Virus record (IMG/VR): IMGVR_UViG_3300036778_000065
Span: 1 to 43,559 of that record
Length of the DNA stretch: 43,559 nucleotides
Direction: 5' to 3' (one strand)
Source: a virus
Lineage: Duplodnaviria; Caudoviricetes
Within the stretch, counting starts at the first letter, position 1. Each line of letters begins with the position of its first letter. The notes beneath the pieces are model-generated. The model was not told the origin of the DNA. It searched no databases and saw nothing but the letters and a program-made list of their open reading frames with translations. Positions 14,005 through 43,559 of this stretch are shown piece by piece. The position numbers were made by a program, and so were the translations under genes.

Positions 14005-14690
14005 TTATGAAGTCATATCAAATAGCGTCGCAGCCAACTGAAGGACTCCTGCAACGGACGGATTGTGCGACTGAATACGTTCTACATGCGCGAAAAACTC
14101 ATCGAGAGTCCCGTCATTCTTTAGCAGATTACATTCACCGCAGCAGGGCACAACATTGCCGTGAACATAACCTTTGCTCGAATCGACACGATCCAGGCCG
14201 GAGTAACGAATCTCCATACCCGGAACACGCGAAAGTTGACCTTTGGTTCTGTATTTCACATAGAACACATTCGATGGCTCTTTGCCGCAGTAGGTACACG
14301 GCATCTTCGACACCACTTTTAATTGGGGGAGTGTGAGATGAAATGAAATTCCTTCCCGCGATGGCTCATCGAATTATGAAAACTGTTCCAGATGCACTCA
14401 ATGTTTCGTGCGGGAAGCCACGTAGGTCTTGCTCTGCACTTGAGACAAGAGGTACTGATGCCGTTGCGGAGAGCACGATAAGTCACAACCCGTTCGACCC
14501 CGCACTGACAACGAACCAAACAGGCGCGGTCGGTATATTTTTTAGAACTAACGTACCAATCATTTTCGAGCACAACCCATTTCCCAAACTGCTTCCCTAT
14601 GGGAACTGGTGGATATTTCAAAAAGTTCACTTGCAGGTTGTTAGTATCAGAACGGCGGTACACGCCTACCTGTGCAGACAGGTTTTTCAT
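14005..14690 (-). pseudogene. Free-standing HNH homing endonuclease split by a frameshift
   Basis: N-half IGKQFGKWVVL..CQCG..STSC, C-half PCTYCG..GLDRVDSSKGYVHGNVVPCCGECN; ATGAA duplicated at 14338-14347 separates the frames; AT-richer than flanks. Confidence 0.8.
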
Positions 14691-38626: not shown

Positions 38627-38660
38627 AAAAAGAGAAAAGCCCGATGCGAGAACATCGGGC
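38627..38660 (-). terminator. Rho-independent terminator on the minus strand
   Basis: GCCCGATG-TTCTCG-CATCGGGC followed by TTTTCTCTTTTT. Confidence 0.75.
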
Positions 38661-38685
38661 CAATCTCAGAAAGGTGGTACGAAAC

Positions 38686-38934: not shown

Positions 38935-39243
38935 CTATGTGCGCCGAGCATCCGGCGCGTACTCGTTAAGCGCATGAGCGACGCGCTTTGCCATTGACTT
39001 TGAGCGACAGATGCAAACCCCGTCCCCGCCCCGCACTACGTTGAAATCGACCGCGACGAACAGCGGGAGCCGACGCGGACGCGGAGGGAGAAAACCCCCC
39101 GCGTCCATTGCCTCAGCGATGCTCACGCCGGAGGCTATCAACTCGGTACGGCTGAAGACGTGGAACGCCCCGCCATACTCGACTATGGCTGGAGCGAACA
39201 CGTCCGCATCGCGCAAGATATCCATTGCGTGTCTGTAATCCAC
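38935..39243 (-). CDS. Hypothetical early protein
   Basis: 102 aa, 3 bp after the preceding stop. Confidence 0.6.
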   Translation of the reverse strand: MDYRHAMDILRDADVFAPAIVEYGGAFHVFSRTELIASGVSIAEAMDAGGFLPPRPRRLPLFVAVDFNVVRGGDGVCICRSKSMAKRVAHALNEYAPDARRT

Positions 39244-39246
39244 CCG

Positions 39247-39675
39247 TCACACCCCCCACGGAGCTTCATCGTACCCAGGCAGGGAGTCGATAAGGCGATC
39301 CTTCAAATGTTCACAGAACCGTTTCGCTTGCGACGTGTCCCACCCGTCATGGTCAGAGCTTTGGTACTCAAAGCACTTAAGCAGTTTGAGAGCCGAGACG
39401 ACGGGCCAGTATTGCCCCGCGACAGAGCCGGAGTAGACGAACGGAGCATCGTATACGATTCCCTCCGAGGGATAGCGGGCCGCGACACTGAGATGTTTTT
39501 CGCGCCAGAGCATATCCCCCAGACAATTAGCTTGCGACAGGTGAGCGAGACGCCCAGGATTACCGAAGGACAGGGAGTGCCAAGCCCCGTCTATCGTTTT
39601 AGCCTCAGCGACGCCGACGAGAGCGATTGAGACGAGAGCGTGGATGTGTTCTTCAGAGACGATGAAAGACGACAT
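39247..39675 (-). CDS. Conserved-looking early phage protein
   Basis: MSSFIVSEEHI...SVAARYP...LKCFEYQSSD...LPGYDEAPWGV; repeat leader upstream. Confidence 0.75.
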   Translation of the reverse strand: MSSFIVSEEHIHALVSIALVGVAEAKTIDGAWHSLSFGNPGRLAHLSQANCLGDMLWREKHLSVAARYPSEGIVYDAPFVYSGSVAGQYWPVVSALKLLKCFEYQSSDHDGWDTSQAKRFCEHLKDRLIDSLPGYDEAPWGV

Positions 39676-39738
39676 TTGAGAAACCCTTTCGGACGGGATA
39701 ACGCGCCCGTCCTTCGCGCTTGAGGGCCGAGGCCCGTT

Positions 39739-39996
39739 TTAGTTGCCCGACAGACACAGCTTGCTTGAGAGCCGCCGCTCACCTTCGATGGTGGGAGCTT
39801 CGGGACTCACAGCTTCGGGCCATGCCGCCTTCACTTCATCAAGGGAGCGATAACAGTTATCGACAATGTTCGCGCCTCTGCCAGAGACACAGACGACCGC
39901 GAACAGTTGCTTTACAGCTTCCCCCTCAGATTCGAGGAAGATGCTTGTGTCTTCACCGTCCACCGCATCCAGCGCAATGATGTACAAGTTGCCCAC
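39739..39996 (-). CDS. Hypothetical early protein
   Basis: TAGTG coupling to 39996..40364. Confidence 0.6.
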   Translation of the reverse strand: MGNLYIIALDAVDGEDTSIFLESEGEAVKQLFAVVCVSGRGANIVDNCYRSLDEVKAAWPEAVSPEAPTIEGERRLSSKLCLSGN

Positions 39997-40364
39997 TAGC
40001 AGACCTCAATTCTGCCAAGGCGGAGAGCCTCAGACGTGTATCCCGACAGTGGCTTTTTAGCGTTGAAGTGAATATCCCGTTCGATGTACAGACCATACGG
40101 GAGCGTGATCGACTCCAGTTCTGCGAACGAAACCCAACCAAGTTCGGGATATCCCATCCCCAGATCACACAGCCCGAAAGCCCTGTCAGGTTCATCCGCA
40201 TCAATCTCTGTCAGGAGCCACGTTGCAGCCCCGCAAGGGTTGAAGAGTTTGAGGACAGGCGCAGGATCATGCGGAGAGTCCGCCGCCCGCGCCTCCATCC
40301 CGCGCTGATAGTTCTCCAGCATCTCGCGACGTTGCGAGTCTAGGAGCATCCGTTGTCTAGCCAT
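39996..40364 (-). CDS. DUF2958-family protein
   Basis: PVLKLFNPCGAATWLLTE...AFGLCDLGMGYPELGWVSFAEL...IERDIHF. Confidence 0.85.
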   Translation of the reverse strand: MARQRMLLDSQRREMLENYQRGMEARAADSPHDPAPVLKLFNPCGAATWLLTEIDADEPDRAFGLCDLGMGYPELGWVSFAELESITLPYGLYIERDIHFNAKKPLSGYTSEALRLGRIEVC

Positions 40365-40478
40365 TTTTTGAAATCCTTTCGGTTGAGGGCCGAGGCCCGT
40401 TGACGTTTAGCGCGTGGAGGCTTTGGACTCCACTAGCCGCATTAACGCGAGAGGCCGAAGCCCCCGCGCCCATCTGCG

Positions 40479-40787
40479 TTAAGCGTATATCGGTACGTCC
40501 TGCGAATGGTCATTGATCCATTGCCAGTACCGATCATAAGGGAGAGCGCAGGACAAATAGCGATCAGTTGCAATCCACCCCTCCGCCTCTAAGTTGTGAT
40601 CGACAGCCACAGACTGCAAGCGCAAAGCCTCACGCTTGTAATAGAGCCGAAGGTTAGCGACAATTCCAGCCCGCCCCAACTCTCGCGCATGAGCTTTAGC
40701 AGCTTCCGCCGCCACAGAGACAATACTTTCGTGAGTCATCATTTCCCTCGCTAATTCTTCATCGGAGATGCAAAACAGTTGGTTCAT
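40479..40787 (-). CDS. Hypothetical early protein
   Basis: GAAAGGA RBS within repeat leader. Confidence 0.7.
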   Translation of the reverse strand: MNQLFCISDEELAREMMTHESIVSVAAEAAKAHARELGRAGIVANLRLYYKREALRLQSVAVDHNLEAEGWIATDRYLSCALPYDRYWQWINDHSQDVPIYA

Positions 40788-40822
40788 AGTCCATTCCTTT
40801 CGGTTGAGGGCCGAGGCCCGTT

Positions 40823-41122
40823 TTAGGATGCCGCCCGCGTTAGCGGGAGGGAGTAGTCAAAGGGAGAGACCGGAATCGAACGCACATACGGACGCTCACC
40901 GCGCCATCGCAGATAACTAGCGTAACGATCTAAGAGATACATTTCGAGTTTGAATACTTGCTCAGGGGAGGCAGATGAAGTCATGACTTCAGAGCCGACA
41001 ATGCGGACGCGCTTGCCATCCACACAATAAACCGCATCCGCACCCCCGCCCAGGCCGCCGCAAACGATGAAGTTTACGCCGCGACAGGGGCAAGAATCGT
41101 AACCACAACCGTCATTACGCAT
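40823..41122 (-). CDS. Hypothetical early protein
   Basis: GAAAGGA RBS within repeat leader. Confidence 0.65.
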   Translation of the reverse strand: MRNDGCGYDSCPCRGVNFIVCGGLGGGADAVYCVDGKRVRIVGSEVMTSSASPEQVFKLEMYLLDRYASYLRWRGERPYVRSIPVSPFDYSLPLTRAAS

Positions 41123-41236
41123 TGAAAAATTCCTTTCAGTTGAGGGCCGAGGCCCGTTGACGTTTAGCGCGTGGAGGCTTTGGACTCCACTAGCCGCATT
41201 AACGCGGGAGGCTACACCCTCCCGCGCCCATCTGCG

Positions 41237-42124
41237 TTAAGCCGCCTTGACGCCTTTCAACTCCGCCATCCGCTCCGCCAACTGCCAGAGCGCACGATTC
41301 AGCCGCACGTCTTGGTCTATACCGCGAACCTCACGCGTAGTCTCACGCCGAGCCGGACGCCCATCGGCAGCTTGCCGCCATGCGGACAGCCCGCCTTTGA
41401 TGGAGTTTTCCTGTACCACGTTTAGAGTCCTGTACAGGTCAGGAGCGGGCCGAGACCAGCCGTGAGAAGCTTCGCCCGCGCCCGCCCTGTCATCCGAGCG
41501 ACGCGGAGTCAGGAGAGCCGTGGGAGTGATAGCGGTAGACACTACGCCGTCACTGTCAGCAAAGCGGAGCGAATGCGCGGCCTCAGCGAATGCGACTTGC
41601 TCACCCGCTGTCAGTTGGAGAGACGACCAGTTGTCAATCGTACCGAGAGCCGCCCGCGAGTCATCAATAATCTGGAATGACCCGTCAATCACCTGATGCA
41701 CCACGTTTCCTTTGTGCGGGATGGTAATTTCACCCATGTTCCGCTCACAAACCACCATCCCGTTAGTGCAGATCATTCGGAAAATACCCGCGAAAAGCTT
41801 ATAGGATGATGTGCCATCGTGGGAGTTAACTAGGACAACTTCGGGAACGTTCTCGCCTACTCCGACGGCGGACGCGGTAGCATGACGAAACCTAATCATG
41901 TGCTTGGTAAATTCGGACTTGCCTTCGATACGTGAGCGAGACTGGACAGCTTTGAACGGTGAAAAGCCTTCTGCGACTAGGCCCGCGATTACTTCGGACG
42001 TAGGAATGTAGGCGTACCGAGCGGAGCGGGAGGAATGAGCCTCCGTAGCAAAGGCAGACGGTACAACGCGTTGTAAATCGGCAATGGTGAGGGCATTTGA
42101 GAAGGTGCGGTTAAAGCGAGTCAT
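41237..42124 (-). CDS. DUF932 (DUF945-like) family protein
   Basis: RSARYAYIPT, FTKHMIRFR, EVVLVNSHDGTSSY..FAGIFRMICTNGMV, LNVVQEN..KGG, LNRALWQLAE; GGAG RBS before ATG 42124. Confidence 0.85.
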   Translation of the reverse strand: MTRFNRTFSNALTIADLQRVVPSAFATEAHSSRSARYAYIPTSEVIAGLVAEGFSPFKAVQSRSRIEGKSEFTKHMIRFRHATASAVGVGENVPEVVLVNSHDGTSSYKLFAGIFRMICTNGMVVCERNMGEITIPHKGNVVHQVIDGSFQIIDDSRAALGTIDNWSSLQLTAGEQVAFAEAAHSLRFADSDGVVSTAITPTALLTPRRSDDRAGAGEASHGWSRPAPDLYRTLNVVQENSIKGGLSAWRQAADGRPARRETTREVRGIDQDVRLNRALWQLAERMAELKGVKAA

Positions 42125-42192
42125 GCGAATATTCTCCAAGTTCGTGAAGTTGCGGGCCTAAGCCCGTTTGACGTCATAATGACGCTATAAAC

Positions 42193-42221
42193 AATATAGC
42201 GAAAGGCGAGAGCGAATGCAA
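42193..42221 (-). promoter_or_regulatory. Sigma70-type early promoter
   Basis: TTGCAT-17 bp-TATATT. Confidence 0.65.
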
Positions 42222-42242
42222 GCGAATACAGAAAAAAGATGC

Positions 42243-42884
42243 TCAAATGAGCATCTCTAATTCCATCAAGGCAGTACGGATATTGTTGTTAGCTTCTTTG
42301 ACGATGCGGGCGAAGTTTGGCGCGGGCTTATCGGGTGAAGCTTCGTGACTCCAGACGTTCGACAGCAATTCAGTTGCATCCTTCGCGACTCCCCAACTGG
42401 AAAAGTCCAACTGGAAACACCGCGAGCGGAACCGAGTTTTAAGGCTCTCCGTTTCGTTACAGGTGAAGACGAAAATCGTATCAGCGGGCCGAGCCGTTTC
42501 GTCTAGCAGCGACAGAAAAGCGTCCTGAGCCGCTCCGCTCATGCTGTCAGCTTCATCCACTAAAACCACGTGGAAACGCTTGCCAGTCATCGGAACATAC
42601 GCGCAACGTTTGCGGACAGCTTCGACAGCTTCGACGGTACATTTTTGAGAGGGGATATGGTGCAATTCACCGTCTAAATCCGTTGCGAGAGCGAGAGCGA
42701 GAGTAGTTTTCCCCATGCCTGAAGGCCCGCAAAATAGCCAAGCGGATGAACGCGGGCGAGAGATAAGAGCGAGCATCCTCGCCTTTACTTTGTCGAGTCC
42801 GATGAAGTCCGCAACATGCAGCGGGCGATACTTTGACGTAAAGATGACGTCTTGGGTTGATTGAGAGAGCGGAGAGAATAGCAT
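42243..42884 (-). CDS. Clamp-loader-like AAA+ ATPase (DnaX/RFC-type, no collar domain)
   Basis: SKYRP..DFIG, GPSGMGKTT, VLVDEAD, FVFTCN, RSRC motif; 213 aa. Confidence 0.8.
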   Translation of the reverse strand: MLFSPLSQSTQDVIFTSKYRPLHVADFIGLDKVKARMLALISRPRSSAWLFCGPSGMGKTTLALALATDLDGELHHIPSQKCTVEAVEAVRKRCAYVPMTGKRFHVVLVDEADSMSGAAQDAFLSLLDETARPADTIFVFTCNETESLKTRFRSRCFQLDFSSWGVAKDATELLSNVWSHEASPDKPAPNFARIVKEANNNIRTALMELEMLI

Positions 42885-42951
42885 GATTGATTCCTTTCGG
42901 TTGAGGGCCAAAGCCCGCTAGAAGTTGCGCCAAAGGCCCGCGAGAGCGGGC

Positions 42952-43164
42952 TTACAGTGGAGTAATTATGGTTTGAGTGGACTGGAGTGAAACCTTAAAC
43001 TCAGGGGAAGGAAAACGGGCCTTCATATCTGCGAATAGTTCGCGGGCCTGAGATTCGACAATAAAGGGATTCGGAGATGTAGCGAAGTAGTGAACGTATC
43101 TCGGTTCCGTTCGATTCCAGTTGAGTCCATCTGCCTTCGCAACGTTGATTGAGTAGCCTTGCAT
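42952..43164 (-). CDS. Hypothetical protein, first gene of the early operon
   Basis: GAAAGGA RBS within repeat leader; YSINVAK...HYFAT...FPSPEFKV. Confidence 0.7.
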   Translation of the reverse strand: MQGYSINVAKADGLNWNRTEPRYVHYFATSPNPFIVESQARELFADMKARFPSPEFKVSLQSTQTIITPL

Positions 43165-43256
43165 GGGTTCGATTCCTTTCGGTTGAGGGCCAAAGCCCGT
43201 TAGAAGTTAGGCGCGAGAGCCGCGCCAAAGGCCCGCGAGAGCGGAGCGTTAGATCG

Positions 43257-43286
43257 AAGATATGCGGAGAGCGGGCCGAATGTCAA
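43257..43286 (-). promoter_or_regulatory. Sigma70-type early promoter
   Basis: TTGACA-18 bp-TATCTT. Confidence 0.65.
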
Positions 43287-43559
43287 GCGCAAACGTGGGG
43301 ACGCTCCCCACGAACAAATAAAACAACGGGCGAATGAGCCGCGAGAGCGGAGCGAATGAGCCGCGAGAAACTGTCCAAGCAAAGGCCCGCGAGAGACGCG
43401 CCAAAGGCCCGCGAGAGAGCCGCGAGAACCCCCCCAAAAGCCGAGCCAGCCAAGCCGAGCCAGCCAAAATAAATGCACAGGGTCTCCAATAAATAAATAG
43501 GGCAGGGGGCGGGGAATCCCTTGCAGATGGGCCAGCAAAAATGTTAGGCTGAACTGTTG

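Follow-up and report, generated by a model that had tools for sequence, protein, structure and literature searches.

Predicted twister ribozymes and a repeated leader hairpin in a variable gene array of uncultured tailed phages

Positions 38,935 to 43,286 of the virus record IMGVR_UViG_3300036778_000065 carry an array of nine leftward open reading frames (ORFs), in which a short leader hairpin recurs ahead of most genes and two spacers hold predicted self-cleaving ribozymes of the twister class. The window analysed here is the entire record, 43,559 nt long; its terminase, portal and major capsid genes are those of a tailed phage. Its sequence is present in soil metagenome runs, a contig of run X1, which may be the source sample, beginning at the same base as the window, and no RNA dataset appears among the sequencing runs listed as containing it. 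The array occupies the right end of the window and lies at the contig end in relatives as well, a position which suggests an early region that is injected first. Its features, from the head of the array leftward, are the following.

43257..43286 (-): sigma70-like promoter TTGACA-18-TATCTT, 10/12 matches, at the array head (2 sites found against a chance expectation of 2.2); putative transcript start
43187..43198 (-): leader hairpin 1, loop TTTG
42952..43164 (-): ORF of 70 aa (phrog_18878, E 2.8e-5)
42905..42916 (-): leader hairpin 2, loop TTTG; a 6-bp hairpin lies ahead of it, just past the upstream stop
42243..42884 (-): clamp-loader-like AAA ATPase, 213 aa, the near-constant first anchor gene (42/58 arrays of the family described below)
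42235..42258 (-): scan match (5 found against a chance expectation of 5.9)
42193..42221 (-): putative promoter TTGCAT-17-TATATT before DUF932, read off the sequence
42154..42165 (-): leader hairpin 3, loop TTAG
41237..42124 (-): DUF932 protein, 295 aa; in other relatives ArdC holds this slot, and the two never occur together
41173..41236 (-): predicted type-P5 twister ribozyme A (RF02684, 55.1 bits, E 9.6e-10), predicted cut 41201/41200
41144..41155 (-): leader hairpin 4, loop CTCG
40823..41122 (-): ORF of 99 aa (family in 3/58 arrays)
40808..40819 (-): leader hairpin 5, loop CTCG, 3 nt past the upstream stop
40479..40787 (-): ORF of 102 aa (relatives in 0/58 arrays)
40416..40478 (-): predicted type-P5 twister ribozyme B (RF02684, 50.9 bits, E 1.1e-8), predicted cut 40444/40443
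40387..40398 (-): leader hairpin 6, loop CTCG
39996..40364 (-): DUF2958 protein, 122 aa
39739..39996 (-): ORF of 85 aa, coupled to DUF2958 and lacking a leader
39724..39735 (-): leader hairpin 7, loop CTCG, 3 nt past the upstream stop
39691..39718 (-): predicted H-type pseudoknot directly 5' of the Shine-Dalgarno (SD) sequence
39247..39675 (-): ORF of 142 aa (family in 5/58 arrays)
38935..39243 (-): ORF of 102 aa, the last anchor gene (50/58 arrays, mostly found with this gene)
38638..38661 (-): terminator-like site 3' of the array, from a sequence scan

The clearest predicted processing signal in the array, missed when the sequence was first read, is the pair of twisters. Both exceed the Rfam gathering cut-off for RF02684 (37.6 bits) over model positions 1-58, and they are the only Rfam hits above cut-off in the window. 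Each begins at the first base past a stop codon; together they enclose a block of two genes, their predicted cuts (41201|41200 and 40444|40443) each fall 45 nt 5' of a leader hairpin, and the two spacers, leader included, are identical at 101/108 positions. The defining features of the class are P1, P2, P4, T1, T2, a U-A cleavage site and a conserved G (PMC5408937). All five helices pair in both window copies, and the cleavage site and catalytic G are present in each (U41201/A41200 with G41232; U40444/A40443 with G40474). Compared with the type-P5 family, the copies carry the full model with its stems and pseudoknots, and depart from it in T1, where a compensated change has put U-A in place of the G-C of the Rfam consensus. 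In an alignment of 15 twisters taken from the window and from further phages, pairing holds for 95.4% of cells and 15/22 pairs have changed at both positions; pseudoknot T1 pairs in full (100%), 3/3 of its pairs covarying, and such pairing is reached in 0/500 shuffles. We consider the two spacers almost certain to be true twisters, and very probably active in vitro. The idea that other leaders serve as trans-substrates of the twisters was rejected, since type P5 needs an L4 loop past the cut site, and this loop is missing from every other spacer in the window.

There are exactly seven copies of the leader hairpin itself, GGGC-N4-GCCC, in the window, all of them on the minus strand and within the array (43198, 42916, 42165, 41155, 40819, 40398 and 39735). 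An earlier note on this sequence had placed it before seven of the nine leftward ORFs and nowhere else, with the loops CTCG (four times), TTTG (twice) and TTAG (once), and had described the two remaining ORFs as translationally coupled; all of this is borne out, with 7/7 exact copies in the array, the 85-aa ORF overlapping the DUF2958 stop and the last ORF starting 3 nt past the previous stop. Allowing at most one mismatch, the 18-nt leader pattern matches seven times, compared with a mean of 0.02 (maximum 1) in 200 shuffles; at three mismatches, nine matches against 6.75 in shuffles are not above chance. The note had further proposed that the units consist of leader and ORF with no spare DNA, which holds for two of them (40823 and 39739, with the stem 3 nt past the stop) but not for the two spacers with about 80 extra nt, which are the twisters, nor at 39735, where the leader is followed by the H-type pseudoknot. 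Its suggestion that the SD lies in a CC-GAAA-GG mini-hairpin fared poorly: pairing probabilities are 0.49, 0.70, 0.00, 0.01, 0.09 and 0.00 in the six scored copies, values that do not support a conserved switch of this kind. The main leader stem, of 4-5 bp, pairs with a probability of at least 0.8 in 5/7 copies in one folding window; it lacks a U tail, goes undetected by the terminator scan and, in 5/7 copies, lies 20-22 nt 5' of the start codon.

The pseudoknot represents a second, family-wide type of leader. A descriptor for it returned 33 hits in 26/58 arrays, some of them noise; the minus strand gave 3, and shuffled sequences 2 and 5. Such leaders (window 39691-39718 (-), L008:3029, L088, L243:206, L266:235 and others) have varied stems and end 11-19 nt 5' of the start codon. 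No Rfam match to this leader was found; as modelled, it could be an exonuclease block.

Relatives of the array were found by searches with DUF932, capsid, AAA and last-gene queries, complemented with fetched genome ends. From 77 non-redundant loci, 58 family arrays were kept, the 19 dropped being 14 loci that had AAA only and lacked the last anchor gene, together with L213, L220 and L223, and L089 and L090, which are near copies of L088. Rfam was run on 54/58 arrays and our own descriptors on 58/58. The exact window leader has no hit in viral contigs, because leader stems are genome-specific; a blastn search against cultured phages gave a single 3% match, and a capsid search in GTDB genomes found none. 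A generic hairpin test on the family leaders discriminated weakly, at 83% against 52% for shuffles, and was superseded by a recurrence test, in which the same hairpin precedes at least three genes in 32/47 genomes with at least three leaders, and in 0 of 20 shuffles. These 32 genomes use 11 different stems and 63 loop readings, with no constant core, and the flanks of the leaders are single-stranded and A/C-rich. That structure is kept while sequence changes between genomes supports the earlier proposal of a shared RNA-level signal. Within a genome, leaders resemble each other more closely (mean score 18.6) than do those of the same gene between genomes (10.1), from which we infer homogenisation by recombination.

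Ribozymes are also found in other arrays of the family. At least 21, of three kinds, occur in 17/58 arrays: 16 twister-P5 above the Rfam cut-off, one twister-P1 (E 1.5e-6) and one hammerhead II (E 4e-4) below it, and three hammerhead II called by descriptor only. Short-stem hammerhead hits were discarded as noise, the same kind appearing in controls, and the minus strand, shuffled sequences and 1.34 Mb of capsid-region control sequence gave no twister. Nearly all (20/21) begin -2 to +4 nt from a stop codon, and they are concentrated after ArdC or DUF932, with a ribozyme in 14/25 of these spacers against 7/197 others (Fisher p 7e-11), although the counts are not independent and the contrast is inflated by kinship. 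The same slot may be filled by twister-P5, twister-P1 or hammerhead II, and with each of them the upstream piece carries a hairpin at its 3' end or immediately before it; in slots lacking a ribozyme a plain hairpin is common, and that of L234 aligns with the P1 stem of the twister in its sister L235. A tree of the AAA protein (41 rows) indicates at least nine gains or losses of a ribozyme, and sister genomes often differ. One array, L252, holds four near-identical twister-P5 (L252:574-3718), whose P1 stem sequence is also that of the leader hairpin. Outside the family, 23 other DUF932 phage loci were read by eye, and 4/4 of those sent to Rfam carry a ribozyme right after DUF932, three being twisters at or above cut-off and one a hammerhead II (E 0.0055). 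These twisters and hammerhead lie at L016:7848, L022:7832, L036:3543 and L024:7816; L022 has two more ribozyme hits and L036 one more. No paper linking twister or other self-cleaving ribozymes to ArdC, DUF932, anti-restriction or anti-defence phage genes was found in a search that Roth 2014, Weinberg 2015 and all supplements, which may list such a link, lay outside. The main text of PMC11541004 names neither ArdC nor DUF932 nor ribozymes.

The alternation of ribozyme and plain hairpin in sister genomes would also fit a different division of labour, in which the leader hairpin itself marks all seven junctions for cutting by a host endonuclease (RNase E or Y type), with ribozymes standing in at some of them without need of a protein. 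Cleavage directed by stem-loops is known, the single-stranded, A/C-rich flanks would suit it, and a promoter-like site precedes only 40/222 family leaders (median 18 nt 5' of the stem; a count made with no control), so that most hairpins would stay internal to a transcript unless it is cut. However, the leader hairpin is retained even where a ribozyme lies 45 nt upstream, which argues against mutual replacement; its 4-5 bp are too few for RNase III; we identified no conserved cleavage sequence, and the assignment of a host is uncertain. The last-gene family gives the only hint of a host, a weak one pointing to Acidobacteriaceae, through a decayed copy beside two tRNA-like genes, identified by eye, in a metagenome-assembled genome of that family (L275:6600-7310). 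We regard processing by a host nuclease as unlikely.

The genes between the anchors are variable. In the 35 arrays that are complete from AAA to the last gene, the middle genes differ in 35/35, in line with the modular array of variable cargo that had been proposed; fixed gene content was not seen. One clean indel is seen between L237 and L238, which are 92-98% identical and differ by one 250-aa cassette: the overlap at the junction is the 28-nt leader, and the leader of L238 is chimeric. Gains or swaps at a leader are visible by eye between L086 and L087 and between L229 and L233, and an extra gene in L239 entered at a stop/start junction. Among 66 ends of homology blocks, in which events are counted more than once, 33 touch the leader zone (11.8% of sequence), 21 a coupled stop/start junction (2.9%), and 12 fall in genes. 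The earlier view of the repeat as a shuffling point is therefore upheld in that it can be a crossover site, as in L237/L238, but not in the sense of a sole point. On these alignments, gene exchange takes place at boundaries in general, the repeat being one usable homology.

A dedicated recombinase acting on the repeat, as on attC in integrons, would account for the leader-ORF units and for the one clean indel at the repeat. Several observations make it very improbable: Pfam and PHROG scans of the submitted window ORFs, from which some short ORFs were left out, revealed no integrase or recombinase, only RusA and an SMC-like ATPase; the repeat differs in sequence between genomes and has no constant core; 33/66 block ends lie off the leader; and the SD lies within the repeat. 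In contigs of three runs no joint deleting or circularising a cassette was seen, and contigs cannot prove absence. Unlike an integron, the window combines the lack of an integrase in the scanned ORFs with a 12-nt hairpin that has 11 stems in 32 genomes and no attC core, and we conclude from its sequence that it is not one.

A closer parallel is offered by the PeSL cassettes of T4-type phages (PMC2839356, PMC4122927), in which a repeated intergenic element likewise ends in an SD before ORFans. In PeSL, too, cassettes are gained or lost leaving a chimeric element, as in the crossover within the repeat of L237/L238, and relatives of the window show palindromes between -35 and -10. However, PeSL is described as a promoter plus terminator stem-loop in every copy, whereas promoter-like sites accompany 2/7 leaders in the window and 40/222 in the family, and the shared stem of the window is placed immediately 5' of the SD, lacks a U tail and coexists with ribozymes. 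No mini-circles of the PeSL kind were seen in the assembled contigs, which cannot prove their absence. Because most copies have no promoter, the array, judged by its sequence, shuffles like PeSL but is not a PeSL. Promoter-like sites stand ahead of 7/10 DUF932 leaders in the family, a count without shuffle control. Palindromes of the form CAT-N-ATG lie in or just past promoter-like sites (window 42171-42183 (-), L088, L244:1338, L256:1386, L094:2326) and could be PeSL-like stem-loops or a repressor operator. A more distant phage (L015:3000-8856) has eight copies of a TTGACA/TAATAC promoter, hairpin and ribosome-binding site (RBS) around DUF932, a closer match to PeSL.

The cargo identities previously proposed were confirmed for DUF932 (E 5e-41), DUF2958 (E 5e-37) and the clamp-loader-like AAA protein. 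The latter is a stand-alone ATPase of 213 aa with Walker A and B and SRC motifs, much shorter than the clamp-loader profiles that it matches, and is possibly a clamp-loader mimic. In the 35 complete arrays the slot after AAA holds ArdC in 18, DUF932 in 12, neither in 5 and both in 0. ArdC is reported to bind transferred DNA and shield it from restriction (PMC5512222), and its occupation of the DUF932 slot in relatives is the basis for the anti-defence role that the array may have. Position thereby nominates DUF932 as a stand-in for ArdC and a candidate anti-restriction gene. The predicted structure of DUF932 (pLDDT 86.5) gave no Foldseek hit with E < 0.001, the best being VIA at Z 6.5; no solved sequence relative was found, nor, among literature listings, any paper studying DUF932 as an anti-restriction or ribozyme-linked gene. 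The 142-aa ORF had no Atlas hit.

For the last-gene protein, no Pfam, Atlas or Foldseek assignment was obtained. It appears as a tandem alpha-beta3-alpha fold whose N-terminal half weakly resembles a double-stranded RNA-binding domain (dsRBD): residues 1-57 align with many dsRBDs, for instance that of Rnt1p (Z 5.0, rmsd 3.1, 54 residues aligned), with Z within background. This likeness, together with the presence of the gene in 50/58 arrays, raises the notion that the hairpins are binding sites for a single protein controlling the array, possibly the last-gene product. However, FERM/PH and Rad52 folds score alike, the loops vary freely (63 readings in 32 genomes), and the presence of the gene is biased, the arrays having largely been found with it; such an operator system seems to us improbable.

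We favour, by a modest measure, the reading that this is a shuffled array whose twisters dice a presumed early transcript into pieces with ends protected by hairpins. Host RNA polymerase would read the array soon after injection, probably from about 43250 and about 42185. The twisters would cut at U|A and split the second transcript into DUF932, the 99-aa and 102-aa ORFs, and DUF2958 onward. Each upstream piece would end in the 9-10 bp P1 hairpin, blocking 3' exonucleases, and each downstream piece would begin with a 5'-OH followed by P4 and, 45 nt on, by the leader hairpin. Both 5'-OH ends and terminal hairpins slow RNA decay. The leader hairpin or pseudoknot would then act as a 5' stabiliser and RBS insulator, making the translation of any ORF placed behind it independent of the upstream sequence, as with the synthetic insulator RiboJ. 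Repeated leaders would also supply short homology for ordinary recombination, by which leaders are homogenised and cassettes added or dropped. The array probably serves to have counter-defence and takeover genes expressed rapidly and stably. Of its parts, in vivo dicing that favours expression is a reasonably probable one on the sequence data, and the case for the leader as stabiliser or insulator is evenly poised.

RiboJ has the same order of ribozyme, hairpin and RBS, and raises mRNA about twofold and protein 2-10 fold (PMC6206723). The version in the window differs in being natural, intercistronic and based on a twister rather than a hammerhead, and its effect on expression is proposed by analogy. 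The early mRNA of T7 is processed by RNase III into pieces with structured ends, and the early polycistronic RNA of the window would similarly be cut into pieces with structured ends; at its ribozyme sites, unlike in T7, no protein is needed, and the leader stems are too short for RNase III. Perreault et al. 2011 (PMC3088659) described clustered hammerheads on either side of single, variable genes of phages and prophages, ardA among them; these ribozymes are active both in vitro and in E. coli, and were proposed to cut polycistronic RNA. As in those clusters, several ribozymes, two in the window and four in L252, lie amid variable small genes near a likely anti-restriction gene and flank short, non-constant gene blocks. 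The present family differs in consisting mostly of twisters fixed at the ArdC/DUF932 stop codon, in combining ribozymes with a pseudoknot leader and with a leader hairpin that is repeated and specific to each genome, and in the exchange of ribozymes for plain hairpins in sister genomes. Since both PeSL cassettes and clusters of ribozymes around variable phage genes have already been published, the earlier mention of a candidate for an undescribed system was too strong.

A number of observations weigh against the diced array. Ribozymes are present in only 2/7 window leaders and 17/58 arrays, and they are missing throughout one branch of the tree with 16 members, so that the ribozyme must be dispensable; these counts are lower bounds, the twister descriptor having missed L091 and L252 and Rfam having covered 54/58 arrays, and the contrast between spacers carries the kinship effect mentioned above. 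In 2/3 sister pairs the plain hairpin did not align with the twister P1. The leader stem has a probability of 0.06 and 0.12 in 2/7 copies in the same folding window as the others, and both do form in shorter folds. Any insulation of the RBS is small, its unpaired probability being 0.531 against 0.517 with shuffled upstream sequence (62% of 195 leaders). Promoter and terminator matches in the window are not above chance, many breakpoints lie away from the repeat, and the function of DUF932 was not established by structure or sequence search. Finally, self-cleavage can also trigger decay, as in glmS (PMC6765202).

Decay of this kind belongs to an opposite interpretation, that ribozymes and hairpins limit expression: a cut or terminator-like hairpin would end the DUF932/ArdC message and lower the downstream genes, as PeSL stem-loops attenuate, and the repeat would be mainly a by-product of duplication and recombination. 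Slots without a ribozyme often contain a long hairpin, in some cases with a U-rich tail (L009, L234), and one PeSL stem-loop behaved as a strong terminator (PMC2839356). The leader hairpin, in contrast, has no U tail, sits 20-22 nt 5' of the start in 5/7 copies and is followed by a strong SD, and its pairing is kept across genomes despite sequence change, which a by-product would not need. Attenuation thus strikes us as a minority prospect.

Two further observations concern the window outside the array genes. Short GC-rich direct repeats lie at the genome end (43200-43460), and relatives have different repeats in the same place. Two HNH-like endonuclease ORFs (14005-14690 (-)) are found on the opposite strand past the capsid gene.

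The phages of this family are uncultured, and ribozyme clustering in phage operons has been published; the reason for ribozyme-gene associations in bacteria and phages is described as undetermined in a 2019 review (PMC6765202). In that context the family offers a natural ribozyme-hairpin-RBS arrangement resembling an insulator, plus a pseudoknot leader without Rfam match. More elaborately, and in our opinion doubtfully, the array might be a plug-and-play system, in which a ribosome-gated ribozyme at the stop codon frees the ArdC/DUF932 mRNA, hairpin or pseudoknot caps make captured ORFs expressible, and the dsRBD-like last-gene product binds the caps and switches the array; if true, this would give phage ribozymes a concrete function and make DUF932 an anti-restriction factor. 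In close relatives, a single slot, nearly always at the ArdC/DUF932 stop codon, holds a twister-P5, a twister-P1, a hammerhead II or a plain hairpin, and this provides a natural comparison set for the function of ribozymes in phages.

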